The notes under the pieces are model-generated. The model made no database searches. It was given only the letters and a program-made list of their open reading frames with translations, and was not told where the DNA came from. From an uncultured Candidatus Saccharibacteria bacterium (GTDB lineage Bacteria > Patescibacteriota > 4484-211 > JAGQKX01): a stretch of DNA of 64,000 bases. Below are positions 1 to 64,000 of this stretch, in pieces. The translations under genes were made by a program, and so were the position numbers. The number at the start of each line of letters is the position of its first letter. Within the stretch, counting starts at the first letter, position 1. The stretch spans positions 41,234 to 105,233 of the forward strand of contig CAYMOT010000002.1 of the NCBI GenBank assembly GCA_964392315.1. The letters are read 5' to 3'.

Positions 1-46
1 TATTAATGAGCAATGCTACATATTTGGCCTCATTTTCTTCGAAAAT

Positions 47-934: not shown

Positions 935-967
935 ATATGTTTATATATATGAAAGGGGCAGGTTGTG

Positions 968-1270: not shown

Positions 1271-1327
1271 AACCACATTGTATCGCATAGCGTATGATAC
1301 TATAAATAAGAACGAGAGCTTACTGCT

Positions 1328-2356: not shown

Positions 2357-2380
2357 ATTCAATGAAGATCTCCCACCTAA

Positions 2381-2410
2381 AGGAAATCCCCGCTTTCGCG
2401 GGGATTTCCT
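2381..2410. terminator. strong hairpin (perfect 13-bp inverted repeat AGGAAATCCCCGC-TTTC-GCGGGGATTTCCT) between convergent/consecutive genes
   Basis: Perfect inverted repeat seen directly. No long U-tract follows, so the terminator role is inferred. Confidence 0.55.
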
Positions 2411-2556
2411 TTAGGTGACCCCTTATATCTTTCGATACAGGGGAAACCATGTTTGTGGAGAGAGACAACTAAGGCAATTATAGACGATGGTTTCGCTATT
2501 TGTCAATGATCTGTCACCACGTTACAATATTTGTAGAAAGGCTGAATTCCTCACCT

Positions 2557-6007: not shown

Positions 6008-6029
6008 AGGTAGATCTGTATTAAATCAG

Positions 6030-6842
6030 ATGTCACGTCGTAGTCAATTCTTCCTCAGTTCTATTTTGATCATCTTGTGTTTTCCCGTAATAGGGCAGGT
6101 AGTTGGACGTCTTGGGGATATGCCTGTTGCGCTCAGTATTGGTATCTGGGCAGTAGCGAGTCTTGTATTATTTCTATATGTACTCGAGAAAAAGTATACA
6201 TTTCCTGAGCAACTCATTTTTGCCATTATTCCGTTTTTATGCGTCATGCTGGTTGCTACGCTTGGGCTCCAATTTAACATGTTCGCGGTATATCCCATTT
6301 CAGCACTGTGGGTTCTGTATTATGCAATAAGTGTAATCAGTATGTATTTTTTGTTTCTCGCACTCAATATTGTCAATGCTGCGACTGTGCGGACTGTTCC
6401 ATTGTTAAAGGCAGCCCAGACATCAATCTTGGCTATCAGTCTTCTTCTTGCGGTCGCATGGGCATTGTATGTGCAGTATGTGTTGCGTTCGCCAATCATC
6501 GCTGCATGGAGCTGGTTTATTTTTTCATACCTTCTTAGCTTAGCAGTCATTTATTTGGGACAAATTGAGGTAGTACGTGAGTTTACCGCAGTGGTAAAAG
6601 TCCCTCTGATAGAGTCGGGGATAATAGCACTTCTACAAGCATATACCGTTTTTATTACCGCAAGTTGGCAAATGAGCGTATCGATTCGTGTCATATATTG
6701 GGTGTCGTCCCTCGCCACATTCACGATGATTGTACGGGCAAGAAGGCAACGAAGTTTAACACGTAAGTTTGTGCGGGATTTTATGTTGCTACAATGGATT
6801 ATTTTTGCCGCGGTGCTTATTATTGGCCTGCGTGCCATATAA
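6030..6842 (+). CDS. hypothetical polytopic membrane protein (about 8 TM helices)
   Basis: 270-aa ORF that is almost entirely hydrophobic helices. It sits immediately downstream of the T4CP/coiled-coil pair. Confidence 0.5.
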   Translation: MSRRSQFFLSSILIILCFPVIGQVVGRLGDMPVALSIGIWAVASLVLFLYVLEKKYTFPEQLIFAIIPFLCVMLVATLGLQFNMFAVYPISALWVLYYAISVISMYFLFLALNIVNAATVRTVPLLKAAQTSILAISLLLAVAWALYVQYVLRSPIIAAWSWFIFSYLLSLAVIYLGQIEVVREFTAVVKVPLIESGIIALLQAYTVFITASWQMSVSIRVIYWVSSLATFTMIVRARRQRSLTRKFVRDFMLLQWIIFAAVLIIGLRAI

Positions 6843-7457
6843 AGAGCAGGGAAGAGGGGAGAAGGACCCTATAAAACTCGGATAGTGTATAGCGGTGTAT
6901 ATTGAAAAGTAAGCATAAGTTATAAAACTATAGGTTATTAATAATTATAGGGTAATTGTCGTCATGTGGATAACTCAACTGCTAATAGGGGGTTAGTGGA
7001 GACGTTCTGAGAGGGGGTCCTTCCCTCGGTCCGAGAGGGGCTTTTTAGGCCGTTTTATACCAATAAAATGGAGCACTACACGAAATATTACAAAAAATAA
7101 AAACCTATTATTCCCGACTTGTGGGTGCCTGGCAAAAATTCATTGAAAAGCGGGAAATCGACATATAACGTCGCTAATCATACAATTCACGACGTTGTGA
7201 ACATTGCTTTTCTTCTACTCCCCCTCGCACGTGTCAACGAATAAATATGTATATATCCAAATAAACTAATAAGCTTATTAGTTTTTATTCCTCATTTGTG
7301 TATTGGTTTATTATAAATTTGAAATTTGTCATTTTTCCCCTCTCCCCCTCCCCTACCTCAAATAATAAACAAATCCGCCAGCTGGCGGAACAAATAAACT
7401 AATAAGCAAATTTATAAGAACATTTGCTTATTTGTAGTATTTGCTTATTATCTATAT

Positions 7458-8453
7458 ATGGCTCAAGGTCTGTCAGAGGCGTTCATTGACTTCATCGAAT
7501 ATTGTGAACTTGAGAGAGGTTTATCCCATCGTACCGCGGAAAAGTACCACTATCGTTTAATGCGGTTTTTGGATTGGCTTATGCAGGTGAATGGGATACA
7601 AACCCCGTCAATAAAGGATATTACGGAAGAAACAATTAAGGAATTCCGGCTGTATTTACATAGATTCGAAAGCGAACAAACCAAAAAGCAGTTAGCAGCA
7701 TCTACACAGCAACATTATCTGGTAGCACTTCGGGCATTTCTTAAATATCTCAAACGCAAGAAAGGCTTTGACCGTTTGTCTGCTGAGGATATTTTGCTGC
7801 CCAAGGCGCAGGGCAAGACGGTCACGTTTCTCAATGTTGAGCACCTTCAAAGCTTGTTTGCACAACCTGATACGCATGAATTGGCAGGAATGCGAGATCG
7901 CGCGATGCTTGAATTATTATTCAGCACCGGGTTGCGTGTCCAAGAATTGATTAATTTAAATAAAGAAGATATTCCTGAAAAAAGCTCCCAATTCACGGTT
8001 TTAGGCAAAGGTAACCGTTACCGTGTGGTATTTTTGAGTGACGTTGCACGCGATTGGGTGCAATTATACCTTTCACGCCGTATAGATGCATGGCTGCCTC
8101 TTTTTGTTAATACTCATGGTCTAAACCCGACGCGTTCTAAGGGGTCTAAAACCGACGAAAATAAATCAGACGTCCTAGATGACCCGGATGGTGAGAGATT
8201 TCGACTTACGGTTCGTTCTGTACAACGCATTATAAAAAAATATGCAAAAATGGCAGGGTTGAGTCAGGAAGTGACGCCGCATGTAATGCGTCATAGTTTT
8301 GCTACCGATTTGTTAACGCGTGGTGCGGATCTTCGATCTGTGCAGGAGCTTCTGGGGCATAAAAATGTCGCGACCACCCAAATCTACACGCATGTTACCA
8401 ATACACGGCTGCAGGAGGTACACAAAAAGTTTCATAGTACAATAGAGGAATAA
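7458..8453 (+). CDS. xerC: tyrosine site-specific recombinase, XerC/XerD family
   Basis: N-terminal SAM-like domain plus a catalytic domain with RVQEL, HVMRHSFATDLL and GHKNVATTQIYTHV (catalytic Tyr). Contains an atypical ~45-aa insertion (NTHGLNPTRSKGSKTDENKSDVLDDPDGERFRL). Confidence 0.8.
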   Translation: MAQGLSEAFIDFIEYCELERGLSHRTAEKYHYRLMRFLDWLMQVNGIQTPSIKDITEETIKEFRLYLHRFESEQTKKQLAASTQQHYLVALRAFLKYLKRKKGFDRLSAEDILLPKAQGKTVTFLNVEHLQSLFAQPDTHELAGMRDRAMLELLFSTGLRVQELINLNKEDIPEKSSQFTVLGKGNRYRVVFLSDVARDWVQLYLSRRIDAWLPLFVNTHGLNPTRSKGSKTDENKSDVLDDPDGERFRLTVRSVQRIIKKYAKMAGLSQEVTPHVMRHSFATDLLTRGADLRSVQELLGHKNVATTQIYTHVTNTRLQEVHKKFHSTIEE

Positions 8454-8467
8454 TAAATCAGTAACTT

Positions 8468-10795
8468 ATGAACTTTGTAACGAAGCTCGTACGCTATCCC
8501 ATTTGGTTTTATAAAGATGGGTTCCAGTTTTGGATCCGATTTTTTCCCAGGACAATAACGCTGATTGCGGACATGATGGGTATAAAACCTATTTTTAAGC
8601 ATTTTCTGTCGCCTTTCCGCAAAGATACATCACCCGTTGGGTATGGCATTGGAATTTTTATACGGCTTGTGTACGGTGGAGCGGGTATTATTGCCGTTGT
8701 TGTGGCCTTTTTTGGACTTATTGGTGCAATGTTGTTTTATTTCTCCATTCCACTCTTTGGGTTTTTGTTGATCATATCGATATCTGATTACACCTGGCCG
8801 AATATCTTAGGGGTGGTGATTTTGATAGCACCACTCGTGTTCTATATCTTTTTTGTAGCGTTAAGAAATCCCAGACTTACCAAAGACGGTTATCGAGTAG
8901 ACTGGGAGCGGGATGTGATGAAGCGGCTGCAGCTCAATCCTGAGGGTGCAATTGCCGCAAAAGAGCATGGTGATTTTGAGCAATTTTTAAAAGAGCGCGG
9001 ATTAACATTAGTTGATTATGAAATTGTTCGGCAGTGGGTTGCACATCAACGCTGGCTTCGTGAAAACTGGAAATACTGGCAGGATGGGCATTATAAGCGG
9101 TTTGTGGGTACAAACCTTGGGTGGGTTTCTGGGTTTATGCGTGAAGCGAAGTATTTTACAAAAAATTTGACGCAGGATCTTCCCCGCCGAAAAGTATACG
9201 AATGGCAAGGTTTGGATCAAATAATCGAGCGCATTTTGGCTGTTCTGGTGCGGGATACGCACAACAACGTGCTTCTGGTTGGTGATTCTGGGGTAGGGAA
9301 GACCTCGGTGGTATACCAAATCGCAAAAGTCATGAATGAGCGTGGTGGTTATCAAGTGATTGACCTAAATATCGCAGGTATGCTTGCGGGCAGTGGGCAT
9401 GAGGGTGAGTTTGAACGACGATTTATAAAAGCGATGCAGGAATTTCGCAATGCCGAGATTATTTTAGTAATTGAAGACATAGAAAGGCTGGTTTCTGGTG
9501 GAGTTGCACAATATTTTTACCCAGTTTTGGACGAGGCGGACTTCCCTATTATTGCTACAACAACTCCTAAAAGTTTGCGGGACGTGCTTGACCGTGAAAC
9601 GAAATTTTTAAATGCGTTTGAGAAAATTCCTGTAGAGGAACCAGATATTCCTGATGTCCTTTTTATATTGCAGGAGAAAGTCAAGGAATTTGAACGACGG
9701 TACGGTGTCTTTATCACGCATCAAGCACTCAAAGCGACCGTAGAAATCGCGGACAGATATATTGTTGATAAAGCATTCCCTTCTAAAGCCATTGATTTGC
9801 TCGATGAGGCGTGTGCATCAGTGGCAAACGGCAGATTTGAATCAGATAAGCAAAAAACAATTCAGGCAACACACATTGAACAAATGGTGAGCGAGATGAC
9901 CGGTGTCTCATTGGGTGAGGTGACCGAAAATGAGCAAGATAAGCTATTACAACTTGAGCAACTGTTGCATGGATTTATTATTGGCCAGGATGATGCAGTA
10001 CAGGAAATTGCTGCCGCGATGCGGCGTGCGCGTTCTGGACTCAAGTCCGACGAGCGCCCGATCGGGTCTTTCTTGTTTGTCGGTCCGACTGGTGTAGGTA
10101 AGACGCTTACTGCAAAGGTATTTGCTCAGGTATATTTTGGAGATCGCGAGAAAATGGTGCGGTTTGATATGAGTGAGTACTCAGAATTTGGGATGACGGA
10201 ACGATTTTTAGATCGAATTAGCGATCAAGTGCGTTCTACTCCTTTTACGGTACTACTTCTTGATGAGTTTGAAAAAGCGGACCAAAAGATTCATAACCTC
10301 TTTTTGCAGATATTGGAAGATGGCCGTGCTACTGACACACAAGGCAATGTCGTTGATTTCAAAAACACCGTTATTATCGCAACAAGCAATGCTCAAAATG
10401 TTGAGCAAGCTTTTAGTCCAGAATTGCGCAATCGCTTCGATGGGATCGTGACATATAAGCCGCTTAATCCCGATCAGATACTTGAGGTTGTCCGGCTTGA
10501 ATTAGGAGAATTGGGTAATAAGCTGTACGAGAAGGAAATTTCGGTTACCTTCTCCCCTACCCTCATTCAGGCGGTAGCGCAACTTGGATACGACCCCAAA
10601 ATGGGCGGACGACCTATACGCAGAGCTATTCAAGATAATATAGAGAATCCTCTTGCAGATGCACTGATCAAAGAAGACATTCACGCAGGTGATTCAATTT
10701 ATCTGGATTGGGAAAATGACCACCTGGTGATAAAAAATGAGGTTCCCGTCTCCCCTGCCCCTGACCAGCCAGCGGAGGGTGAGGTGCAGGTATAA
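8468..10795 (+). CDS. Clp/Hsp100-family double AAA+ ATPase (ClpB/ClpC-like) with an N-terminal multi-TM domain in place of the Clp N domain
   Basis: D1 Walker A LLVGDSGVGKTS. The D2 signature GQDDAVQEIAAAMRRARSGLKSDERPIGSFLFVGPTGVGKT...LLLDEFEKA...VIIATSN matches ClpB/ClpC D2. The first ~130 aa form 3-4 hydrophobic helices. Confidence 0.75.
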   Translation: MNFVTKLVRYPIWFYKDGFQFWIRFFPRTITLIADMMGIKPIFKHFLSPFRKDTSPVGYGIGIFIRLVYGGAGIIAVVVAFFGLIGAMLFYFSIPLFGFLLIISISDYTWPNILGVVILIAPLVFYIFFVALRNPRLTKDGYRVDWERDVMKRLQLNPEGAIAAKEHGDFEQFLKERGLTLVDYEIVRQWVAHQRWLRENWKYWQDGHYKRFVGTNLGWVSGFMREAKYFTKNLTQDLPRRKVYEWQGLDQIIERILAVLVRDTHNNVLLVGDSGVGKTSVVYQIAKVMNERGGYQVIDLNIAGMLAGSGHEGEFERRFIKAMQEFRNAEIILVIEDIERLVSGGVAQYFYPVLDEADFPIIATTTPKSLRDVLDRETKFLNAFEKIPVEEPDIPDVLFILQEKVKEFERRYGVFITHQALKATVEIADRYIVDKAFPSKAIDLLDEACASVANGRFESDKQKTIQATHIEQMVSEMTGVSLGEVTENEQDKLLQLEQLLHGFIIGQDDAVQEIAAAMRRARSGLKSDERPIGSFLFVGPTGVGKTLTAKVFAQVYFGDREKMVRFDMSEYSEFGMTERFLDRISDQVRSTPFTVLLLDEFEKADQKIHNLFLQILEDGRATDTQGNVVDFKNTVIIATSNAQNVEQAFSPELRNRFDGIVTYKPLNPDQILEVVRLELGELGNKLYEKEISVTFSPTLIQAVAQLGYDPKMGGRPIRRAIQDNIENPLADALIKEDIHAGDSIYLDWENDHLVIKNEVPVSPAPDQPAEGEVQV

Positions 10796-11027
10796 ACATA
10801 TGAATGAAAAAGGAGGGTATCCATTTCCAACAGACATTAAGGATAAGCAAGATGTAACTGAAGGAGCTTTTGCAATTGTTAAAGAGTTTTCTCATCATCC
10901 TGAATGGATTGTTGGTGGAGAAATGGCAAGTTTGAAGAAATGCCGCAGCTGTAGAGTATTATCTCGATGGGAGACTGAATCTTATTTTTGATAGTAGTTG
11001 AGATAAGAGTGAAAAATGGAAGTGAAA

Positions 11028-11190
11028 AGAAAAAGGCCGAAGGGTTCGACCTTCCGGCCTTGCGCGCGTATAGAAGTGGCAGCCAAATGGTGCGCCTGGG
11101 GCGAATGGGCTGGTCTCGCTGACCGCCTTGCGTCTGGCCCCGGCAGCTGTTGCCGCCACTCCTGGGGGTGTGAATCCCCCGTTACAGTTT
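11028..11190. ncRNA. candidate structured RNA (unclassified; SRP RNA, tmRNA fragment or other)
   Basis: A ~160-nt island of ~60% GC in an AT-rich genome. It has several hairpins (GGCCGAAGGGTTCGACCTTCCGGCC; GGGGGTGTGAATCCCCC, which looks like a T-arm). The six-frame ORFs across it are low-complexity Ala/Arg artefacts. Confidence 0.3.
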
Positions 11191-11402
11191 GTCAAATTTT
11201 TTCTTCACAGTCCTCCATGAAGAGGGTAAACATACTAGGTTTGAAATTTGATCTCCACTTGTGGCCAGCAAGTTTCAATTGATCTAGTACCCCTAATAAA
11301 CAACTGCACATACTATAAGACATTAGGTGTCAATGGTAATTTTCTGGAGTGTTTTTGTATGTTGACTAAACAGCTAACGGTGGTTTGTGTCAGTAAATTG
11401 TG

Positions 11403-55490: not shown

Positions 55491-55568
55491 TGGTGGGTGA
55501 TACAAGATTCGAACTTGTGACCTCCACCGTGTCGAGGTGGCGCTCTAACCAACTGAGCTAATCACCCA
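55491..55568 (-). tRNA. tRNA-Val (anticodon GAC) with encoded CCA
   Basis: The reverse complement folds as a cloverleaf: acceptor GGGTGAT/ATCACCC, D-arm GCTC-AGTTGGTTA-GAGC, anticodon arm CCACC-TCGACAC-GGTGG (GAC in the centre; position 33 is C, which is unusual), T-arm ACAAG-TTCGAAT-CTTGT, then ACCA. Confidence 0.8.
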
Positions 55569-55619: not shown

Positions 55620-56732
55620 CTATTTGCTTATTTCATTCTTGGGCATGTTCCATTCTACCAATTGCCTGATTACCTTGTCACGGCGCATCAGGTATCGCAA
55701 GTGTTCTTTTCGGTCGGGGTCATTGAACAGCTGTTTTGCATTTGGTTCCTTGCTTGCATCAATTTCAGCTTTTACTTCTTCATCAGAAACGCTTATATTT
55801 TCAAGTTCTGCAATCTTTGCCGTTATAAACTCTATAGTATATTCGTGTTCCAGGTCATCTTTCCATTGCTTTTTTAATTCCTCCACTGTAGTTTGCTGTT
55901 TCTTTGAGTAACCTTCTAGGTCTAATCCCATTTTTTCTAGCTCTTCAGTCTTATGTTTCTCCTGGTGCTCTAAATCGTGTTGAATGAGCTTTTTTGGAAG
56001 TGATAAATTAGTCTTTTCTTTCAGTGCATTTAAAACTTCTTGGGTAAATTTATTACCGGATATATAAAAACGCTCGAGGGTTAAATTAGCTTGTAATCGT
56101 TGTGTAAGATCATCGAGATTTTCAGCCCCTAGTGTAATTGCCCATTCGTCATCTGGCTTGTCTTTAGTGTTTGCTAGAGGGGCTTGTTTTTTATGACTGG
56201 TGGCTTTGTCGTTTGCTTCTTCCAAAGTCGTTGCAGTCTCGATTTTCGTGCCTTCTTCCTTAGTGCGCTCTTTCCACGTAGCAAAAAGCTCATCTAATGC
56301 TTTTTGTGTATCTTCGGGCGTGATTGTGGGCTCTTCGTATGTAACGCCGAGGCTTTTATAATCAGGAAGTTCAGGCTCTGGTCGCACTGTTACCACAAAG
56401 ACGAATTCAGGATTTCCCTCCCCTTTCATGAGTGCTTCTTCATTATTAATTTTTATCTGAGGCTGTATAAGAGGAAATATTTTCTCGTCTTGCAATATCT
56501 TCCGGTATGCACCCTCCACTAATTGCTCCAAAGTCTCCTGAAATAATCGGTACTCCCCTACTCTTTTTCTGATTTCATTCACCGGTGCCTTGCCTGGCCG
56601 AAATCCGGGTATATTGATATCACGACCAAGGAGTTCTAACGCAAGGGTTTGAGCAATTTTCGTATCACTTGCGTCGGTCGTTACCGTGAATTCTATCTCG
56701 CAATCAGGTAAGTCTTTTCTGGTGATGTTCAT
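55620..56732 (-). CDS. tig: trigger factor (ribosome-binding and chaperone domains; short)
   Basis: N-terminal ribosome-binding domain with the GFRPGKAP signature loop. 370 aa, which is short, so the PPIase domain may be reduced. Confidence 0.85.
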   Translation of the reverse strand: MNITRKDLPDCEIEFTVTTDASDTKIAQTLALELLGRDINIPGFRPGKAPVNEIRKRVGEYRLFQETLEQLVEGAYRKILQDEKIFPLIQPQIKINNEEALMKGEGNPEFVFVVTVRPEPELPDYKSLGVTYEEPTITPEDTQKALDELFATWKERTKEEGTKIETATTLEEANDKATSHKKQAPLANTKDKPDDEWAITLGAENLDDLTQRLQANLTLERFYISGNKFTQEVLNALKEKTNLSLPKKLIQHDLEHQEKHKTEELEKMGLDLEGYSKKQQTTVEELKKQWKDDLEHEYTIEFITAKIAELENISVSDEEVKAEIDASKEPNAKQLFNDPDRKEHLRYLMRRDKVIRQLVEWNMPKNEISK

Positions 56733-57304
56733 ACAGGCCTCATTATAAGTGCATTTTGCAAATCCGCCAACTAGCGGAGCATATAAAGAAATATCTAAAA
56801 ATGCTATAGGTGTTGTGCAATTGTGATTAGTAAAAAATGACGTTATAATCCGTCAAAATAATGCTGCACATTAAAAGTGGAGGCAGTTTGGGACTTGAAG
56901 GGTGGGTATAAGAAGTCTCTTTTCGGACTTTTTGTATCCCCCCTTCGTTTTTTAACCCCAAATTCCTCCGAAAACTGTTCCCAACAGATCGACAAATCCT
57001 ACAAACTCACGCTGTCCCCCGAGTTTAATGGATACAAGTCCTTACCGTTTCCTCTTTGGTCAAATTCCAATCATTCCCCTTTTAAATACATTGTGCCATC
57101 ACACAATGTATTTCCTCGCTTTATTCCCCTCCCAGGCTTGAGGAAGCCTCCCCATGGTAAGGCATATATTCAAGCTCCTCCTCCCCGGAGGAGTGAAGCA
57201 CACAGCTGATGCGGCTGTGTGTACCTAGAATGTGCTCAAAAGACGAAAGCCCTAAGAGAGCATGTTCTGTTTATTGGCTAGGGCACTATGTAAGAAGGAG
57301 ATTG

Positions 57305-57814
57305 ATGATTCCCCTAGAGCAAAGGGTACGTAATCCCGTAAAGATCGATGTCCCCGGTCTTTGTGTACGCACGCTTGTGGATGAGGTGTTTTGCAGGCGT
57401 GGTGTTTTCGTAGTCCCCTTTCGACGAGGGGATTTCATTCCAGAGAGAGGGGATCTCGTTGCAGAGATTTTGATTATCAATGACCAGAGTGTTCCGATTC
57501 CTTTGGTCTGCCTTCGGGTAAAAAGAGAAGGCAATAGGTACTGGTTCGGGCGGATCTTTCGATTGGTCGATTTTTCCGAAAAGGTTCGTCGAGAAGATGA
57601 GCAAGTTCGGTTGGTCGATGAACAAGGTCGAGAGATTCCTAACACTCCAGAAGATCGGCTCGCTCACATTCTGCGAATGCGTGTCCTTCCTCGGAATGAC
57701 GCACAAAAGAAGCAGTGGGCGTATTGGGGTGATGAATATTGGGTAGCTGCTATCTTCAGCGAACTTCGTCGCCTTAAGGTGCAGGCTGTTCGTGCGGTAG
57801 CCTCGAGGAGGTAG
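57305..57814 (+). CDS. hypothetical protein (Arg-rich), GC-rich region
   Basis: RBS AAGGAG 4 nt before the ATG. 169 aa. No family recognised. Confidence 0.45.
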   Translation: MIPLEQRVRNPVKIDVPGLCVRTLVDEVFCRRGVFVVPFRRGDFIPERGDLVAEILIINDQSVPIPLVCLRVKREGNRYWFGRIFRLVDFSEKVRREDEQVRLVDEQGREIPNTPEDRLAHILRMRVLPRNDAQKKQWAYWGDEYWVAAIFSELRRLKVQAVRAVASRR

Positions 57815-57816
57815 CC

Positions 57817-57912
57817 ATGAGTGCGTTTGGCCGGCTTCTATTGGTCTACTTTGCCTTAATGTGCTTGCTTATGGCGGGGATATTTATGCTCGCCAACATC
57901 CTTGGAGGATGA
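57817..57912 (+). CDS. 31-aa hydrophobic micro-protein (MSAFGRLLLVYFALMCLLMAGIFMLANILGG)
   Basis: GGAGG RBS 5 nt upstream. Its stop overlaps the RBS of the next gene. Not in the ORF track because it is under 60 aa. Confidence 0.35.
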   Translation: MSAFGRLLLVYFALMCLLMAGIFMLANILGG

Positions 57913-57913
57913 C

Positions 57914-58453
57914 ATGACGCATCAAGTGGTGTACGCCCCGTATGGGGCGCGGATTGAGATGGAGTTGGATAGCATACCGTTTCGCGTAGAAATGGGCATG
58001 CACGTGCAGGCGGACACGAAGAGTCTGCTAGGACGGCAGGCGGTTCGCTCGTTGCAGGAATGCAAGTTGCAGCCGCAGCTCTTCGTGACCCTCGATTCTC
58101 GCGGGCTTCCCATCGAGCCAGTGCTGCTTTCGCAGCGGCACGAGGTCTACGGTGTCGAGCTTGCGCTCGCGTGGACCACGCAGGCGTCCAGCTTCGTCGG
58201 CTGGGGGCCGCTGATGGCTCCCTGGATCTACGATCCCAGCTTCGACTGGGAACTGCGCGTCAAAGCTTTGGCGCAAGCGATTGCGGTCAAGCTGTTTCCG
58301 ACGGCGAAGTGCGAGTCAGTGTTCACATTTGCGGGCGGCATCATGATCGCCTATGACACAGACTTGCTGCGTTTGACCAATCGTTCGGCGCAGTTTGAAA
58401 TCCAGATGCCTATGCCCGCAGTGGGTGCTTCGGCCGTCGCTGTGACGGCATAG
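57914..58453 (+). CDS. hypothetical protein
   Basis: GGAGGA RBS 4 nt upstream of the ATG (MTHQVVYAPYG...). 179 aa, Ala/Leu-rich, high-GC third positions. Followed by a terminator. Confidence 0.5.
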   Translation: MTHQVVYAPYGARIEMELDSIPFRVEMGMHVQADTKSLLGRQAVRSLQECKLQPQLFVTLDSRGLPIEPVLLSQRHEVYGVELALAWTTQASSFVGWGPLMAPWIYDPSFDWELRVKALAQAIAVKLFPTAKCESVFTFAGGIMIAYDTDLLRLTNRSAQFEIQMPMPAVGASAVAVTA

Positions 58454-58472
58454 AGAGATAGCTGAATGGCAA

Positions 58473-58508
58473 GGCCGACCCGTCTGACGGGCCGGCCTTT
58501 TGTTTTTT
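58473..58508 (+). terminator. rho-independent terminator
   Basis: GGCCGACCCG-TCTGA-CGGGCCGGCC hairpin followed by TTTTGTTTTTT. Confidence 0.75.
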
Positions 58509-58587
58509 ACTCACATTTTCTCAACAAATTCAGATAACCAGCCTGTAAAAGTATCAATGAGCTCTCATTACAAAAAGGCTTATAGTA

Positions 58588-58617
58588 TTGACATGAGGGT
58601 GTAATTTTTGCTATAAT
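58588..58617 (+). promoter_or_regulatory. near-consensus sigma70 promoter (TTGACA-N18-TATAAT)
   Basis: TTGACA at 58588-58593 and TATAAT at 58612-58617, in an AT-rich spacer upstream of the lipoprotein gene. Confidence 0.55.
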
Positions 58618-58687
58618 GCCGCCAGTTTTCGCACCTCCAGTCCCGAGCGGGTCTGGAAGAATTCACAAGCAGAAGATGGAGGTTTCG

Positions 58688-59362
58688 ATGAAAAAGTTCG
58701 GTTTGTTGTTTGTTTTGTTGCTGGCTCTGGCCCTGGCCGCGTGCGGCGGCAACCCGGCGGCCGATACGACCGGCGGCGCGGCCGCGCCGACGGTGGCCCC
58801 CACAGTCACCCCTGCGGAGACGCCGGAGGGGCAGGATCCCCTACTGGCGGCCCCGGTCGGCAACTCTGGGTACGACAACTGCCTCGATCCGTGGGATCTG
58901 GGGCGGGTGCGCGAGGCCTACAAGTCGAAGATAAGTCCGACAGGTTACGCAGGGACGGTCGTCCTGCTCACCTGGACTCGGGAGGCTGGGCCCCAGAACT
59001 TCGATGAGTGCTACACGAACCGGCATGGCCAATTCGTGTTTACCAAGCACGATGTACCCATCACTGAAGAGCTTTACGAGCGTCTGACCGGCGGCCGGAA
59101 CGACCTGACGGTCCTGGCGCCCGTCCACGCTACGCAGGTACCCTCGGGGTGGGAAGCTTCGATGTGGGTGCATGACTATGTTAATGGTTTCATGACCTAC
59201 GAAGAAGTCAACTCCTACACCCTCTGGGCCTTCCAGAACGACGCAGAAGGCTACCAGATGGTCGCCGGCATGGTGGCGGCCGGCCTCATCGGTGCCTTGC
59301 TCGTTCCCGCGTTGCTCGGGGGCCCGATGGTCCCTGACTGCGGCATGAACAGCTGCGGCTAG
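58688..59362 (+). CDS. lipoprotein (lipobox LAAC) with Ala/Pro/Thr linker and a hydrophobic Cys-rich C-terminus
   Basis: MKKFGLLFVLLLALALAAC|GG signal peptide with a GGAGG RBS. The C-terminal MVAGMVAAGLIGALLVPALLGG TM-like segment ends in DCGMNSCG. The ORF track starts at 58616. Confidence 0.6.
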   Translation: MKKFGLLFVLLLALALAACGGNPAADTTGGAAAPTVAPTVTPAETPEGQDPLLAAPVGNSGYDNCLDPWDLGRVREAYKSKISPTGYAGTVVLLTWTREAGPQNFDECYTNRHGQFVFTKHDVPITEELYERLTGGRNDLTVLAPVHATQVPSGWEASMWVHDYVNGFMTYEEVNSYTLWAFQNDAEGYQMVAGMVAAGLIGALLVPALLGGPMVPDCGMNSCG

Positions 59363-59389
59363 AACGGCCGCAAGGAGAGTAACAATATA

Positions 59390-59428
59390 AAAAGACCCCG
59401 CCCTACTGTAGGACGGGGTCTTTCACGT
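59390..59428. terminator. bidirectional terminator between convergent genes
   Basis: AAAGACCCCGCCCTAC-TG-TAGGACGGGGTCTTT, a near-perfect 15-bp palindrome flanked by A/T runs. Confidence 0.7.
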
Positions 59429-59449
59429 TTATGGGTGTAAATAAAAGCG

Positions 59450-59980
59450 TCAAATACTCACAGATAGTTTCTGATATCCAAGTCTTTCCAAATCTGAGGC
59501 AATGTCATTATAAGACTTCCCTGCTAATCTCCCACCTGCGATAAAGTCTTCTTGGGTGACGTCAGCCAAGCAAAAATCCGGTACCACAAAGTTCTCCTTT
59601 TCTTCTTCAGATGAGAACTCAAAATCTACAAGCACTAAGCCTTCCAAAGCATCCGCGAATACATCCACCTCAGCAGCATGCCCGTTGTAATCAAATGAAT
59701 ATCGAAATTTTCGCAATTTCCTAGCAGGAATATTTCTAAATGCAGCGAATTCGTGCTCTTCCAAATCAATAGTATGCTCTTCATGTTGCGATGCGTCTCC
59801 TCTTTCAATAGGAATCTTTTTGACAAAGGTGTATTTGTCGCCACTTTTTCGAATACGAATTCGAGGATGTGTGGCATCTATGGGTAGATACATATCAATA
59901 ATTTCTTTTTTTGTTGCGTGATGAATGTCGGCGGGGATATATTTTGCCAGAAATGTTAATTCAAGTTCTAATTCAGTCAT
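59450..59980 (-). CDS. CYTH-domain protein (CyaB/thiamine-triphosphatase-like triphosphate tunnel metalloenzyme)
   Basis: RIRIRKSGDKYTFVKK, RKFRYSFDYNGHAAEVDVFADALEGLVLVDFEFSSEEE and FVVPDF match CYTH core strands. AT-rich codon usage like the first part of the window. Confidence 0.6.
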   Translation of the reverse strand: MTELELELTFLAKYIPADIHHATKKEIIDMYLPIDATHPRIRIRKSGDKYTFVKKIPIERGDASQHEEHTIDLEEHEFAAFRNIPARKLRKFRYSFDYNGHAAEVDVFADALEGLVLVDFEFSSEEEKENFVVPDFCLADVTQEDFIAGGRLAGKSYNDIASDLERLGYQKLSVSI

Positions 59981-59994
59981 ACTGCCAAGTGTAG

Positions 59995-60024
59995 CACAAA
60001 AAAAGGGACACCCGGCGGGTGTCC
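59995..60024 (-). terminator. rho-independent terminator (minus strand)
   Basis: GGGACACCCGCCGGGTGTCCC hairpin followed by TTTTTTT on the minus strand, between gene 60061-60414 and the CYTH start. Confidence 0.7.
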
Positions 60025-60060
60025 CAGTGGAGCTACTGCTCCTTTGCGTTGTCTCTCAAA

Positions 60061-60414
60061 CTACTGCCGCCGGCGCGCTCCGTGACGGATCTCGTCTAAC
60101 GCATCAGCGCCATCAACGTCATCGGTGGCGATTTCGGTCTTTCCCGTGTGTTGCTCGAGGCCTTCAATGAAGAAGGCGAAGAGCACCAAGTTCGGTTCTG
60201 CGGTTACGATCTGCAGGCTGTAGCCTCCTTCGAAGAAGAAAGGATACACGCCGATATGGTCGAGGAATCGCTCAAGACTCTCAGGGGTGACGATCTTGTC
60301 GTCAGGCCTGAACACGTAGATGAGCCTGTCGCCGACCAGAATTCCCCAGTTATCCGTACCGAAGAAGTTCGTGAGGAGCCTCTGGACGACTTTCAGAATC
60401 TTCGTTTTGCTCAT
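60061..60414 (-). CDS. hypothetical protein
   Basis: 117-aa ORF with high-GC codon usage. No family recognised. Confidence 0.45.
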   Translation of the reverse strand: MSKTKILKVVQRLLTNFFGTDNWGILVGDRLIYVFRPDDKIVTPESLERFLDHIGVYPFFFEGGYSLQIVTAEPNLVLFAFFIEGLEQHTGKTEIATDDVDGADALDEIRHGARRRQ

Positions 60415-60424
60415 AGAACCCTCC

Positions 60425-60787
60425 TTACGGACGATTTATCCAGAATGTCGTGAGGGTGGCGAATAGTGTAAACACCAACCAAATGGTCTGCCACCTCATC
60501 GACTTTCGGTACATTGCGATGATCATCGCCACGTAGGGCACGATGATCAACAGCGCTATTGGCATACCGATCGAATCCACGCTCACGGCGATTATGCCCA
60601 TACTCAGGGCAGTGGCGACCGATACACGAGAATCAAAGTATGCCATACCGATTGCAGAGGACAGCACGAGAAATGCAGCAATGTATGCACCTTGTTCGCT
60701 TCCGGAGAATACATACCCCATCAGAAAAACGAAAAGTGCAAACTTGCAGATGTCTCGATACCCATTACTTTTGTATGTGTTGTCCAT
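60425..60787 (-). CDS. hypothetical membrane protein (3-4 TM)
   Basis: 120 aa with hydrophobic helices. Confidence 0.5.
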   Translation of the reverse strand: MDNTYKSNGYRDICKFALFVFLMGYVFSGSEQGAYIAAFLVLSSAIGMAYFDSRVSVATALSMGIIAVSVDSIGMPIALLIIVPYVAMIIAMYRKSMRWQTIWLVFTLFATLTTFWINRP

Positions 60788-60796
60788 GGGGCACCT

Positions 60797-61105
60797 CTAA
60801 GCAGCTTCCCTCTCTTCTTCGTCCGGGAAGACGAGGAAGGCAAAGATGGTGATTGTCAGCTCACCGATTGCCAGGACGACTGTCTTGCCTGTGGCGAAGG
60901 GAAGGCGTTCGAAGCCCCCATACTCCATAACCGACTCGATCTGCGCTTCGGTCATGGTCCCTTGGACAATGACCATACAGACGTTGCCATCGATGAAGAA
61001 GTGGAAGTCCACTTCATTTTCGATTGCAAAGTCAAAGGCGTAAGGAAGGGTGTCTCTGACGTACTCTTCCTTTTCGTATCTCGTTCCTACGTATCTCCTT
61101 GTCAT
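60797..61105 (-). CDS. hypothetical protein
   Basis: AAGGAG RBS 5 nt before the ATG (MTRRYVGTRYEKEEY...). 102 aa. Preceded on its strand by a hairpin plus T-tract at 61127-61160. Confidence 0.5.
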   Translation of the reverse strand: MTRRYVGTRYEKEEYVRDTLPYAFDFAIENEVDFHFFIDGNVCMVIVQGTMTEAQIESVMEYGGFERLPFATGKTVVLAIGELTITIFAFLVFPDEEEREAA

Positions 61106-61180
61106 TGTTCTCCTTCTTGCATGAAAAAAGGGTGCCGCCACCTGCGCGGCGCGCACCCTCTTGCTAGTTCAGTTGCGACT

Positions 61181-61354
61181 TCACTCGAGATCGTCGATGG
61201 TGAAGAGGTAGAAATCCTCTTCTCTCCACCAATCGCTGAAGTCTTCCACAGCCTGGCCATCAAATGGCAGGCCAAGGAAATCAGCGACTGCATCGATCAG
61301 GTCACGGATGTTCGGAATCCGTGCCTTCGTACCAGTAGTGCATAAACGCAACAT
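61181..61354 (-). CDS. hypothetical small acidic protein (57 aa)
   Basis: ATG preceded by GAGAGAGGAAATAA. Protein MLRLCTTGTKARIPNIRDLIDAVADFLGLPFDGQAVEDFSDWWREEDFYLFTIDDLE. Under the 60-aa ORF-track cut-off. Confidence 0.35.
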   Translation of the reverse strand: MLRLCTTGTKARIPNIRDLIDAVADFLGLPFDGQAVEDFSDWWREEDFYLFTIDDLE

Positions 61355-61450
61355 TTATTTCCTCTCTCAGTTGGTGAGCCCGCAAAGGCTCAGTTGTTTG
61401 AAATTGGTGCCGCCCATAGGCGGCGGCACCATACAGCTTACTTCAGACTG

Positions 61451-61687
61451 CTACTCGGGCATGCCATCGAAAGGCAAGTCCCAATCGCCACCCATCCAGA
61501 TATTCGGATAATCTGATGTGGGGCACTGGGCAGCCTTCACGGCGGTGGTACCAGCATTCTCGGTCCCGACGATCTCGATGGTAACGTTGTCAGGGGAAAC
61601 GCCCAGCAGCTGCGCAACTTGCTGCAACAGCCTGCCAGTATCGCCCCAGTACACTATCCTATCTGCCCGAATTACGATATCTGTCAC
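61451..61687 (-). CDS. hypothetical 78-aa protein (GTG start)
   Basis: GAGGAGG RBS 5 nt before the GTG. VTDIVIRADRIVYWGDTGRLLQQVAQLLGVSPDNVTIEIVG... The longer ATG-initiated ORF to 61810 has no RBS. Confidence 0.4.
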   Translation of the reverse strand: MTDIVIRADRIVYWGDTGRLLQQVAQLLGVSPDNVTIEIVGTENAGTTAVKAAQCPTSDYPNIWMGGDWDLPFDGMPE

Positions 61688-61755
61688 AGTGTCCTCCTCA
61701 AACTGGTGTGTCCTCCGTGCCCGGAGGACACGGAGGACATGCGCATGTTCGACGC

Positions 61756-62067
61756 CTACAGTGCCGCCGGGTTGGCGAGCATCGGGTAGTTGGCCCGATG
61801 CAGACCGCACCGCTGCGGGTGGAGCCCATGACGGCGAGTCGTCCTACTGCAGCCGGGGATGGTGCACAGCCGCCGCGGGGCGACGCTGTGGTCCCGGGTG
61901 GAGGCCACTTCATAGTGGCCGCTGCAGTTATCGCCACCCTGGTAATCGGGCGTCTGATGGGCAGCATTGATCCTGACGAGGTCATTCGGCGTCATGTTGA
62001 TGAGACGCCGCTTGCGACCGCAGGTCTTGCATTCGACCCTCGTAATAACGCTTTGCCTATTTTTCAA
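61756..62067 (-). CDS. hypothetical Cys-rich (zinc-ribbon-like) basic protein
   Basis: VECKTCGRKRRL...DNCSGH...LCTIPGC Cys pairs. AAGGAG RBS 5 nt before the TTG at 62067 (the ORF extends to an ATG at 62115). Third-position GC favours this strand over the antisense plus-strand ORF. Confidence 0.4.
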   Translation of the reverse strand: MKNRQSVITRVECKTCGRKRRLINMTPNDLVRINAAHQTPDYQGGDNCSGHYEVASTRDHSVAPRRLCTIPGCSRTTRRHGLHPQRCGLHRANYPMLANPAAL

Positions 62068-62120
62068 CTTTGCTCCTTTTTGGGTGTGACCTCGCCGGCT
62101 ATCCGGCGAGGCCACCTAGG

Positions 62121-62537
62121 TTAGTTCAGACTAATTGGAAAGGTCTGGCCGACGAAAGCCGGCATTTCCTGCCGGCCGACTGGAACGACGATCTGAACTC
62201 TCCCTTCGTAGTCGTCGATCCAAATGCCAGCAACTTTGAACCCATGCTTCTGCAGCTCATCCATAGTGTGAGTCAGGAGATCTTGAGGATCTCCATTCAC
62301 TACCTCACAGCTACGATGCGCCGCCAGAACGACCAGGTCAGCGTCGCGGTGCTCCACGAGAATTTGGTCAACCGCATTCTCAGAAGCACCTCCGCCGTCC
62401 ATCTGGAGGTATTCGATATAGGCAATTCCTTCGGTATCGTCAGTGGACATCACTTGCGTAATCGCCACAGGAAGGATATCGCTGAATATCGCAGCATCTG
62501 GGTTGCACGCCACGAACAAGACACGTGCCGTTCTCAT
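62121..62537 (-). CDS. hypothetical alpha/beta protein (138 aa)
   Basis: MRTARVLFVACNPDAAIFSD...DLVVLAAHRSCEVVNGD: alternating buried beta-strand-like segments suggest a Rossmann/flavodoxin-like fold. Its ATG overlaps the upstream stop (ATGA). Confidence 0.45.
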   Translation of the reverse strand: MRTARVLFVACNPDAAIFSDILPVAITQVMSTDDTEGIAYIEYLQMDGGGASENAVDQILVEHRDADLVVLAAHRSCEVVNGDPQDLLTHTMDELQKHGFKVAGIWIDDYEGRVQIVVPVGRQEMPAFVGQTFPISLN

Positions 62538-62683
62538 CGCCCGCGTTCCTCCCAGAGCCTGTCCTGACGCATCTTCCACAGAAGGATGATGGTCAGGATG
62601 ACCATGGATTGTGGCACGAAGATGGCGGTGATGGCCAGCTTGGCCAGGTCGAGTTTGGCCTGGAGGGTGAGTTTAGGCTTCAT
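62534..62683 (-). CDS. 49-aa single-TM micro-protein
   Basis: GGGAGGTGGTGAG RBS. MKPKLTLQAKLDLAKLAITAIFVPQSMVILTIILLWKMRQDRLWEERGR. One-nt gap to the upstream stop and ATGA overlap with the downstream start. Confidence 0.45.
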   Translation of the reverse strand: MKPKLTLQAKLDLAKLAITAIFVPQSMVILTIILLWKMRQDRLWEERGR

Positions 62684-62684
62684 C

Positions 62685-63119
62685 TCACCACCTCCCATAC
62701 TCGACATACACACGTTCGGCCTCGGGGTGCGGGTCCCCATCGAACCAGGCCTGCACTTCCTTCAGGACGTCCCCGGCGCATATCAATTCGCCATTGCCTT
62801 TGATGAAGTGAATGCCGTCGCCGTAGTTCGTGAGCCATCCCAAGCACGGGACTTCCACGAGCCACGAGCCGTCGATATTCGGTGGGACCATGACGTAGGT
62901 GAGACGGCGGGCCGGGGTTTTGCCCCAGAACAGGGGGAAGTACCCTCCCGCTATCACGCTGAAGATCGCGATGCCCGACAAGGCCGCGGCTGTACTGGAC
63001 ATGCCAACATACTGCGATGCCAGCAGTAGGCCCAGGAGCACGAATACCGACCCGAACAACATGGCGACCCAGATTCGGAACAATACCGGGTCGTACTCCT
63101 TCTTCGAATTACTCAACAT
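62685..63119 (-). CDS. membrane protein with two N-terminal TM helices and a C-terminal bacterial PH-like (bPH_2/DUF304-type) domain
   Basis: AAGGAGGT RBS 6 nt before the ATG (MLSNSKKEYDPVLFRIW...). Two TM helices plus a ~75-aa soluble domain matches the YdbS/YdbT architecture. The assignment is by architecture only. Confidence 0.45.
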   Translation of the reverse strand: MLSNSKKEYDPVLFRIWVAMLFGSVFVLLGLLLASQYVGMSSTAAALSGIAIFSVIAGGYFPLFWGKTPARRLTYVMVPPNIDGSWLVEVPCLGWLTNYGDGIHFIKGNGELICAGDVLKEVQAWFDGDPHPEAERVYVEYGRW

Positions 63120-63135
63120 GATCGACCTCCTTACC

Positions 63136-63399
63136 TTAGCCGTGACTAAACTCTGAGAGCACGACGCGCAGCCTATCAAGCGCGCGCACAACGCTCCAAC
63201 CCTTTTCCGTAAGGTGAATCTCGCAGCAGGTGTACTTTCCGGAGAGTTCCACCCAGCCGCGTTCTTCCATCTTCTTGATGATCTCGTCGACCTTCGCGAC
63301 CCCGAGCCGCTGAATTGGTTTGTACCATTCGCACGACATTACGGCGTCGAGGATTGAGATGTAGATCATCAGTTGCTGAGCATGCTTCTGAAATTCCAC
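63136..63399 (-). CDS. small winged-helix DNA-binding protein (putative transcriptional regulator)
   Basis: AAGGAGG 6 nt before the GTG. YKPIQRLGVAKVDEIIKKMEERGWVELSGK is a wHTH recognition helix-wing pattern. 87 aa. Confidence 0.5.
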   Translation of the reverse strand: MEFQKHAQQLMIYISILDAVMSCEWYKPIQRLGVAKVDEIIKKMEERGWVELSGKYTCCEIHLTEKGWSVVRALDRLRVVLSEFSHG

Positions 63400-63449
63400 G
63401 GCAAGCCTCCTTGGGGAGGGGCGTCGTCGGACGACACCCCTCAGTAGAT

Positions 63450-63761
63450 TTAGCCCGGACCCAAGGTCACGGGCAGGACCCAATCGGATAGGTCCTGGTT
63501 GCGGCGGCGTTGCCGTTTCTTGTTGGCGTAGCGGACCTTCTTCGCAGCCGGCCGCTCCTTGCCATCCTGAGACCGGTGCGACCCGATCTCAAAGGTGACC
63601 TTTGCCCCGAACTTCAACTTCTTCTCGTCTCCGTCCCGCGGGATGACCGCGCTGACGTGGACGAAAATCCGCTGATCGCGGCCAGCGTCATCGGTGTATT
63701 TGATCTCACCGTAACGCCGGCTGCTGTGAACCCGAATCATGTAGCCGGACAGACTGTTCAC
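63450..63761 (-). CDS. cold-shock-domain (CSD/OB-fold) nucleic-acid-binding protein with basic C-terminal tail
   Basis: YGEIKY (FGFI-like RNP1), IFVHVSAV (RNP2), GAKVTFEIG and RPAAKKV match the CspA-family pattern. C-terminal KKRQRRRNQ tail. GTG start with a GGGAGG RBS and GTGA overlap with the upstream gene. Confidence 0.55.
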   Translation of the reverse strand: MNSLSGYMIRVHSSRRYGEIKYTDDAGRDQRIFVHVSAVIPRDGDEKKLKFGAKVTFEIGSHRSQDGKERPAAKKVRYANKKRQRRRNQDLSDWVLPVTLGPG

Positions 63762-63982
63762 GATGTAAGTGCCTCCCTGAAGCCCTTGATGAGGGCATCG
63801 GTGTTCCCGCTGAACGGGCCGAGGATCGAAGCGAGCTTCGTGTCGTCGACGAATGTAAGCTCAATTGGCCGCACTTGATGCTCAAGGAGCACGTCGATCA
63901 GATAGGCGCCATTTCTTGCCATCATACCGTCGAACCCGCAAGCGGCCCAAAACCGTCGAGTCGCCTCGCGTACAGTTATCAC
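63758..63982 (-). CDS. hypothetical protein (may extend beyond the window end)
   Basis: GTG start with GAAGG 4 nt upstream. 74 aa. No upstream in-frame stop occurs before the window edge. Confidence 0.35.
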   Translation of the reverse strand: MITVREATRRFWAACGFDGMMARNGAYLIDVLLEHQVRPIELTFVDDTKLASILGPFSGNTDALIKGFREALTS

Positions 63983-64000
63983 TTCGCCTTCGACCCCAGT

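Follow-up and report, generated by a model that had tools for sequence, protein, structure and literature searches.

A large structured RNA element upstream of twelve small genes: a possible RNA-centred accessory operon in a Saccharibacteria chromosome

The stretch of DNA analysed here (the window; 64,000 nt of contig CAYMOT010000002.1, Candidatus Saccharibacteria assembly GCA_964392315.1) ends in an array of small genes, the block, which belongs to an operon of 12 co-directional small genes on the minus strand (window-equivalent 64264-60061). Directly upstream of this operon, beyond the window end, stands a large conserved element whose sequence marks it as structured and non-coding. We tentatively read the locus as an accessory operon centred on an RNA and borne by an island that is exchanged horizontally. 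The RNA would serve as a regulatory leader of giant size, as the scaffold of a ribonucleoprotein (RNP), or as both. With the same reserve, the block may be a single transcription unit, part of an accessory island of restricted lineage distribution in the Saccharibacteria chromosome. The locus is more interesting than the window shows, because of the undescribed RNA and because its translation dialect contrasts with that of the host genome. The sequence past the window end comes from L001, a 113-kb Logan contig recovered through exact-protein look-ups, which carries the same locus and is 100% identical to the window over a 10,551-nt overlap (window coordinate = 73762 minus L001 coordinate). The locus is also present on one NCBI contig of a metagenome-assembled genome.

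The candidate RNA upstream of gene 1

Between a 131-aa gene and the first gene of the operon (gene 1) lies a gene-free stretch of about 1.1 kb (L001 8384-9497, window-equivalent 65378-64265). Its DNA is 79-80% identical between the lineages of L001 and L022, a contig on which the same operon order stands beside the genes for trigger factor (tig) and tRNA-Val, and whose trigger factor has 72% protein identity to that of the window; tig itself is 71% identical in DNA, and most coding sequences of the island are 44-65% identical. Past the 131-aa gene the stretch has three hairpins, then a promoter, an early hairpin resembling a terminator, a long imperfect palindrome rich in A and T (L001 8653-8821) and a core. 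The promoter is of the sigma-70 type (L001 8506-8534, window-equivalent ~65.25 kb), with invariant -35 (TTGTCT) and -10 (TATACT) hexamers and a variable spacer, and because the hexamers are invariant in that orientation we assign transcription to the operon strand, with a putative start near L001 8541. The promoter is followed by conserved non-coding sequence of about 955 nt, with a core of about 630 nt and some 28 helices. The early terminator-like hairpin is conserved and lies 50-85 nt after the putative start (L001 8591-8625). It is followed by a long hairpin with a pyrimidine tract in its 3' arm, and this tract can pair either with the Shine-Dalgarno (SD) sequence of gene 1 or with an upstream purine tract. 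The element as a whole ends about 12 nt ahead of the gene 1 SD.

Several lines of evidence point to a folded RNA. First, an alignment of eight distinct full-length copies contains 175 local pairs in 28 helices, with 98.4% of cells paired as compared with 35-39% in slid controls. Secondly, compensatory double changes are seen at 24 pairs, in 13 of the 28 helices, where shuffled alignments give 9.6 +/- 1.9 (0/500 reach the observed value) and slid controls 1-5. Thirdly, the single-sequence fold has a z-score of -9.6, and both the minimum-free-energy and the centroid structures pair a 5' UCUCC with the SD of gene 1 (GGAGA). Conservation is not confined to the stems, since the sequence is also invariant over 30-nt stretches in loops and junctions. 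A hidden open reading frame (ORF) is ruled out because of indels, and ARAGORN finds no tmRNA in the region. No Rfam 15 family, among them OLE, ROOL, GOLLD, HEARO, RNase P, tmRNA, group I/II introns and riboswitches, matches L001 8785-9497 at E <= 1 in a scan of 10.7 kb, and a scan of 881 nt gave only noise at E <= 10. Judged by such comparisons, this is an RNA of 0.7-0.95 kb, undescribed and without an Rfam family, and it is better conserved than any neighbouring gene.

The RNA and the operon occur together. The RNA is present at every locus that covers the sequence upstream of gene 1, and it is absent from L030 (JGI 3300009868, 1-11200), a third and roughly equidistant Saccharibacteria lineage from which the operon is also absent. 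A second copy was not detected by nhmmer in either the window or L030, exact scans of JGI metagenome contigs with two invariant motifs gave zero matches, and an exact scan of IMG/VR with one invariant motif gave none.

The position of the element suggests a leader, and the RNA could be solely a thermosensor, attenuator or riboregulator of a stress operon whose key product is the cold-shock-domain (CSD) protein, with no RNP and no function in trans. The end of the element some 12 nt before the gene 1 SD fits this explanation, as do the alternative pairings of its pyrimidine tract, the early terminator-like hairpin and the place of the CSD gene as second in the operon. There is also a precedent in the cspA mRNAs, which have long structured, temperature-sensing 5' untranslated regions and whose Csp proteins act as antiterminators; the likeness includes a CSD gene behind a long structured leader, terminator-like hairpins, and an SD occlusion that the CSD protein could relieve. 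However, the leader here is about six times longer than in cspA, and the CSD protein, encoded by the second of 12 genes, has a basic tail and is highly diverged and hypervariable. More generally, an element of ~955 nt with 28 helices far exceeds known leaders, the invariant 30-nt stretches in its loops and junctions suggest tertiary structure or protein binding, and it is more conserved than the genes that it would regulate, including the hypervariable CSD gene. We regard a leader and nothing else as an unlikely account of the element.

The operon and its products

The features of the operon and its surroundings are listed in Table 1. The original prediction, made from the window alone, described a GC-rich array of about 11 genes encoding products of 49-144 aa, all on the minus strand from 64000 to 60061 and continuing past the window end. 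The small-gene array and its orientation are borne out by the gene calls, but the number of genes is 12, and what had been taken as a first ORF of 74 aa is the C-terminus of the 168-aa product of gene 1, which runs on to window-equivalent 64264. The genes are tightly packed, with 4-nt overlaps between gene 1 and the CSD gene (GTGA) and between the 49- and 138-aa genes (ATGA), a 1-nt gap between the 144- and 49-aa genes, and gaps of 5-16 nt at several of the remaining junctions. SD motifs of the GGAGG type precede all 11 of the in-window operon genes, and strong-SD hexamers on the coding strand reach 5.5 per kb in the block as against 0.7-0.95 per kb, about the chance level, in the native 57 kb. 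The overlaps and 1-nt gaps, a strong ribosome-binding site on each gene and GC-rich hairpins between sub-blocks had all been described correctly, the hairpins being those in three of the gaps of Table 1; so had the richness in GC, which is 50-64% from about 57 kb to the end and ~43% before that (40-46% in the rest of the window).

Table 1. Coordinates of the operon, its hairpins and terminator, and neighbouring features (window positions unless stated)
Feature	Coordinates	Strand	Remarks
Gene 1, 168 aa	63758..64000 (3' part in window); full 64264-63758 = L001 9498-10004	-	Cut by the window end
CSD protein, 103 aa	63450..63761	-	Pfam CSD; GTGA overlap with upstream gene
Putative winged-helix protein, 87 aa	63136..63399	-	Weak winged helix-turn-helix (wHTH)-type matches; AAGGAGG SD
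Membrane protein with two transmembrane (TM) segments, 144 aa	62685..63119	-	Hydropathy
1-TM micro-protein, 49 aa	62534..62683	-	SD GGGAGGTG and 49-aa call in L003; TM segment
Acidic protein with predicted beta-carbonic-anhydrase-like fold, 138 aa	62121..62537	-	Predicted structure
GC-rich hairpin, 13-nt arms, gap between 138-aa and Cys-rich genes	62086..62115	-	Inverted repeat I3, 92% complementary
Basic Cys/His-rich protein, 103 aa	61756..62067	-	TTG start after AAGGAG
Perfect 10-bp hairpin, gap between Cys-rich and 78-aa genes	61708..61731	-	Inverted repeat I6, 100% complementary
Acidic protein, 78 aa	61451..61687	-	Third-position-biased substitutions
Acidic protein, 57 aa	61181..61354	-	Best conserved product of block, 78% identity between lineages
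Terminator-like hairpin and T-run upstream of 102-aa gene	61134..61150	-	Possible internal attenuator
Acidic protein with one C-terminal TM segment, 102 aa	60797..61105	-	Hydropathy
Multi-TM membrane protein, 120 aa	60425..60787	-	Hydropathy
Soluble protein, 117 aa, last operon gene	60061..60414	-	47-48% identity between lineages
Intrinsic terminator, 10-bp GC-rich stem then T7	60005..60025	-	3' end of operon
176-aa gene	59450..59980	-	AT-rich; terminator with 16-bp stem at 59424-59390
Three divergent island ORFans: 169 aa, 179 aa, 224-aa lipoprotein-like	57305..59362	+	SD-led; GC content at third codon positions 0.685
Trigger factor (tig)	55620..56732	-	Adjoins tRNA-Val
tRNA-Val	55491..55567		Only RNA gene of the window

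Most of these ORFs match no family, long ORFs arise on both strands of GC-rich DNA, and gene callers differ at one position, so that the ORFs might be thought mostly spurious frames in non-coding or decaying DNA. This explanation is effectively refuted, and we consider it extremely improbable. Comparison of two strains gives substitutions at the first, second and third codon positions of [14,5,28] for the 138-aa gene, [7,2,13] for the 49/68-aa gene, [23,22,53] for the Cys-rich gene and [13,12,26] for the 78-aa gene, and this concentration at third positions supports coding status. Every operon ORF is retained across three to five diverged versions, intact and with its SD in versions down to 24-50% protein identity, and two confident AlphaFold2 (AF2) models, the only usable ones from structure prediction, came from tiny alignments. 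The position at which gene callers differ is that of the Cys/His-rich gene, where public calls place an ORF of 98 or 137 aa on the plus strand (61828-62124). That ORF is spurious, its substitutions [43,18,20] being the mirror of those of the Cys-rich gene; the latter keeps all of its Cys and His residues in L003, L009 and L022, and it is called on the minus strand in L019-L021. The original choice of the minus-strand frame over its rival was therefore right, and the public annotation, in which the gene for the putative Zn-binding protein had been displaced in several gene calls by the opposite-strand ORF, is corrected accordingly.

By sequence, all of the operon products are ORFans save for a marginal cold-shock domain. 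Among the block proteins the CSD protein alone reaches a curated threshold (Pfam PF00313, E 1.1e-6, 28.9 bits with a gathering score of 27, residues 11-77), and against the NCBIfam Csp equivalogs it scores 14-18 bits with cutoffs above 115. Its RNP1- and RNP2-like stretches (RRYGEIKY / RQYGFITY and IFVHVS / LFVHxN) keep the aromatic and His positions in part, and most alleles keep a C-terminal motif LPVT(L/Y)(G/L)PG. It had been predicted as a cold-shock-domain protein with a basic tail, which agrees with the Pfam match and with the tail seen (lysine plus arginine, K+R, 23); between lineages it is hypervariable, with 42-51% identity to the L001 version. The 87-aa protein matches phrog_11046, a 'transcriptional regulator', at 9.4e-4 and, short of their cutoffs, Pfam wHTH families at E 0.04-0.06. 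The 144-aa protein, originally predicted to be PH-like, has two N-terminal TM helices by hydropathy, with some 80 aa of soluble domain at the C-terminus, and is the product of the most variable gene (24-43% identity between lineages); it has no family match in Pfam (including bPH_2, PF03703), PHROGs, PADLOC or NCBIfam.

The 138-aa protein has a beta-carbonic-anhydrase (beta-CA)-like alpha/beta fold in its predicted structure. Cys11, His74 and Cys77 are invariant in six aligned members and in P0022, and GGGA48-51 is also invariant. The catalytic Asp-Arg dyad of the CxDxR motif is not conserved, the family having C-(N/D/E)-P-x instead (ACNPD, ACDPR, ACEPS or ACEPT), and the protein is 30-60 residues shorter than the beta-class carbonic anhydrases (Cab-type, PDB 1g5c) and the CS2/COS hydrolases. 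It has no match to Pfam Pro_CA, and a profile of the family found no beta-CA among PDB sequences or 1.84e9 representatives. In our proposal its retained Cys/His/Cys residues would make it a subunit that binds metal, and not a canonical carbonic anhydrase. The 103-aa Cys/His-rich protein (CxxC...CSGH, then CxxPGC...RRH..H..CGxH; K+R 17) likely holds two Zn sites, as its motifs suggest, and in the 78-aa protein the N-terminal 43 aa are conserved and the C-terminus is variable. Overall, hydropathy identifies four membrane proteins in the operon. Four of the products are acidic, and two, the CSD and Zn proteins, strongly basic.

The families are tiny, each 90% cluster containing 1-2 sequences from 3-8 contigs. 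Among 5.8 billion proteins gene 1 is represented by four clusters and the 138-aa gene by six, and the 138-aa family forms three clusters at 50% identity among 1.84 billion representatives; three indexed searches and one exhaustive profile search for distant homologs returned just these same families. PADLOC, NCBIfam and PHROGs add nothing for the block proteins beyond one weak PHROG regulator match (9e-4).

Taking RNA and proteins together, we propose that one unit may extend from the promoter through the ~955-nt structured RNA and the 12 SD-led genes to the terminator at 60025-60005, the large RNA being made with the operon or just ahead of it. The pyrimidine tract (UCUCC) would occlude the gene 1 SD (GGAGA), or pair with the upstream purine tract instead. 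The CSD protein, the two-site Zn protein and the small wHTH protein would bind the RNA, and they could then regulate read-through or translation, by Csp-type hairpin melting or antitermination, or assemble an RNP. The four small membrane proteins could tether such a particle to the envelope, with the Cys/His/Cys protein of beta-CA fold acting as a metal-binding subunit. In its boldest form the proposal is of a new RNP system, composed of a large ornate RNA and about 12 tiny proteins, on an island that brings an SD-dependent dialect to an SD-independent, leaderless-type genome; we think this possible but rather unlikely. Such a system might be used in the interaction of the episymbiont with its host or with its own parasites.

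A number of points weigh against the proposal. There are only about eight distinct RNA sequences in about four sub-lineages, so the covariation rests on few independent events. The pairing that would occlude the SD involves invariant bases and is without covariation support, and a test of G-U versus A-C wobbles is neutral on the strand (55 vs 57). The consensus promoter, and the lack of a strong terminator ahead of gene 1, are the grounds on which we place the ends of the RNA and take it to be continuous with the operon mRNA; with the early hairpin in place it could be that only a short small RNA is made there. The link between RNA and proteins, likewise, is drawn from adjacency and co-conservation. 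As for the proteins themselves, the CSD match is marginal (28.9 vs 27 bits), the wHTH assignment of the 87-aa protein is weak, and the 138-aa protein resembles beta-CA at the level of the fold only, with the dyad lost.

The island and its translation dialect

The genes of the island are written in a different dialect from those of the genome around them. Native genes have GC contents at the first, second and third codon positions (GC1, GC2 and GC3) of 0.55, 0.37 and 0.40, and block genes of 0.57, 0.40 and 0.69. Among 17 genes of tight native operons not one has a motif resembling an SD at any of its candidate starts, and TATAAT is often found 7-9 nt ahead of the ATG at native gene-caller starts, which suggests leaderless mRNAs. 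The same split between SD-led island genes and SD-less native genes is seen in three lineages (the window, at 57300-64000 as against 1-57000, L022 and L030). An SD-led start and a raised GC3 are shared by every block gene, by the three divergent neighbours and by all that is visible leftward, namely a GHKL ATPase gene, genes of 238, 76 and 226 aa, a UPF0182 gene, and the 101- and 131-aa genes. The island is thus at least 17 kb long, a lower bound since its left boundary is beyond the visible sequence. Among the divergent neighbours, the 224-aa protein has a signal peptide with lipobox, a low-complexity Ala/Pro/Thr linker, a C-terminal TM segment and the terminal motif CGMNSCG. The genes for the 224- and 179-aa proteins share 53-62% identity with counterparts in the same position of L009 and L022, and no homolog of the 169-aa gene was detected at the matching position in these two.

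The co-occurrence of these genes in related genomes, which the original prediction proposed to examine, is found in L022, where the same operon order occurs at the same site. The L022 operon proteins are 24-78% identical to those of the window, with three extra small genes and without the 102- and 176-aa genes; the variable content of the island includes extra genes of 146, 61 and 125 aa. The 102-aa gene is restricted to window-type lineages and is absent from L009 as well as L022, and in both of these a 140-aa multi-TM protein, with no sequence similarity detected, replaces the 120-aa gene. At one position of the island L001 encodes a 1026-aa UPF0182 membrane protein (3347-6427) and L022 a Band_7/SPFH protein plus a 77-aa membrane protein (3736-5138). 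In L030 a different set of SD-led ORFans, including an adenylate-kinase-like gene, occupies the tig-proximal site, and it has only the beta-CA-like gene in common with the window operon.

The alleles have also been shuffled. Near-clonal strains (L001 versus L003 and L014) have 0 substitutions over 1.6 kb next to DNA divergence of ~30% or more, and per-gene identities are phylogenetically incongruent, L009 and L022 being 93-99% identical in four genes and 39-57% in four others; alleles of the CSD, gene 1, Zn and 2-TM genes have been exchanged between lineages. From the conserved synteny, the different island of L030 and the incongruent identities we conclude that this is a long-resident, recombining accessory island at a variable site. 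A side observation concerns an extra 146-aa 2-TM protein encoded between the CSD and wHTH genes (L022 8715-9155; also in L009 and L011), which is 95-99% identical across lineages whose adjoining genes are 36-53% identical; because it is so much more alike than its neighbours, this cassette appears to have spread recently. In both L001 and L022 a gene further left encodes a GHKL-type ATPase of 613 aa that has a prealbumin-like domain and matches an unannotated PHROG at 1e-8.

The original prediction likened the array to an early region of a phage or integrative element, or else to a compact accessory module such as a defence or toxin-antitoxin-like system. The accessory, non-housekeeping and foreign character has held up, in view of the GC3, the universal SDs, the allele shuffling and the variable site, and the more specific labels have not. 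No integrase, recombinase, att repeats, capsid, tail, terminase or conjugation genes were found in the ~20 kb visible, about 10 kb to either side. IMG/VR yielded no relatives in scans with four block proteins, tblastn with 16 concatenated island proteins against INPHARED phages and PLSDB plasmids matched only the separate 176-aa gene, and a BFVD fold search gave no viral structural neighbour at E <= 0.001. Searches of the block and flanks of three lineages with Pfam, PHROGs, PADLOC and NCBIfam returned the CSD, the GHKL ATPase and housekeeping matches alone. A recurrence of the gene order without mobility or defence hallmarks, named in advance as speaking against a mobile or defensive nature, is borne out in part: the same order and site are found in L022.

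Nonetheless, much of this would be expected if the operon were the early or accessory (moron-like) region of a prophage, satellite or integrative and conjugative element, or a remnant of one, lodged beside tig-tRNA-Val and carrying its RNA as ROOL and GOLLD are carried. The foreign dialect in GC3 and universal SDs over at least 17 kb, the many tiny overlapping ORFans, the mosaic of alleles typical of phage modules, the different SD-using island of the third lineage at the same site and the variable island content (UPF0182 versus Band_7; the extra 146-, 61- and 125-aa genes) all accord with this, the flanking GHKL ATPase has its PHROG match, and ROOL and GOLLD are prophage-encoded near tRNAs (PMC12286853). 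The likeness to temperate-phage early or 'moron' regions and conjugative leading regions extends to co-directional ORFans of 50-150 aa with overlapping stops and starts, strong SDs and mosaic alleles. Those regions differ from the present one in that here no mobility, virion or conjugation gene lies within the visible ~20 kb, the block itself has no PHROG match beyond the weak regulator one, IMG/VR, INPHARED and PLSDB hold nothing related, tig separates the island from the tRNA, and the gene order is stable at one locus across deep lineages whose trigger factors differ by 28% in protein. A mobile-element origin of this kind is conceivable, and somewhat on the unlikely side.

Hypervariable genes amid conserved neighbours, with shuffled alleles at a variable chromosomal site, are also what an arms race would produce, and the small acidic and basic protein pairs with membrane proteins could be effectors of an anti-phage or toxin-antitoxin-like module in a variable defence island. 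We regard this as quite improbable. No PADLOC model matches better than E = 1e-3; the best (E 1.1e-3) is an E2 model over 35 residues and the others, including CARF, have E >= 0.02, all of them short and sub-significant. No nuclease, NTPase, TIR, Sir2, protease, reverse transcriptase or known toxin or antitoxin domain is recognized, there is no Pfam or NCBIfam toxin or antitoxin family, and the architecture is a 12-gene operon rather than a two- or three-gene cassette; 12 co-conserved genes with a 0.95-kb structured RNA fit no described defence architecture.

Known large RNAs and neighbouring genes

Large, highly structured bacterial RNAs are rare, and OLE, GOLLD, ROOL and HEARO each opened a line of research. 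An RNA with strong covariation that is tied to a defined set of tiny proteins offers candidate partners and a function that can be tested directly, in a group, the Saccharibacteria (episymbionts of the candidate phyla radiation, CPR), in which very few non-coding RNAs or accessory systems have been characterized. An SD-led island in an SD-less genome is also a natural experiment on the translation of foreign genes in SD-independent bacteria, and the SD/GC3 contrast can serve in practice to mark DNA that CPR genomes have acquired horizontally.

The precedent for a large RNA with membrane and small RNA-binding proteins is the OLE RNP of the Bacillota, in which OLE RNA is found with the membrane protein OapA and with OapB and OapC (PMC7936274, PMC12265935). 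As at the locus described here, a structured RNA (~600 nt) adjoins genes for RNA-binding and multi-TM proteins of small size, the RNA exceeds most of its neighbours in conservation, and its function is obscure or linked to stress (PMC7936274, PMC9723947, PMC12265935). There is no homology in sequence or structure (no OLE match in Rfam at E <= 10), the proteins are unrelated ORFans, and the phylum is different (CPR); moreover, the RNA here heads a 12-gene operon in an island of foreign dialect, and RNP formation is putative. By analogy, the locus may resemble the OLE RNP in its working without being a member of that family. ROOL and GOLLD are alike in size class (0.6-0.8 kb), in their many helices, in lying on horizontally acquired DNA near a tRNA and in their obscure function (PMC12286853). 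The present RNA differs in having no Rfam match and no phage genes nearby, in abutting the SD of an operon whereas ROOL and GOLLD are stand-alone genes, and in its extremely narrow distribution, with no exact motif match in JGI contigs or IMG/VR.

On the far side of the operon terminator, the 176-aa gene lies outside the operon, because it is AT-rich (GC3 0.32), lacks an SD, has its own terminator and is missing from the L009 and L022 versions of the locus. Related sequences are limited to hypothetical proteins, encoded on plasmids of Streptomyces and Rhizobium and by two uncultured phages. An EXEXK-like N-terminus raised the idea of a CYTH enzyme, which was rejected: there is no Pfam match, and BLASTP against the L030 CYTH gene that adjoins tig gives E = 3.2. 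The 370-aa ORF beside tRNA-Val was likewise considered as an integrase and rejected, the profile matches identifying it as trigger factor. It matches Trigger_N and Trigger_C alone, with about 56 residues between them and no match to the peptidyl-prolyl isomerase domain, and by sequence this central domain appears to be missing. The tRNA-Val gene follows tig in both of the lineages whose downstream sequence was scanned.

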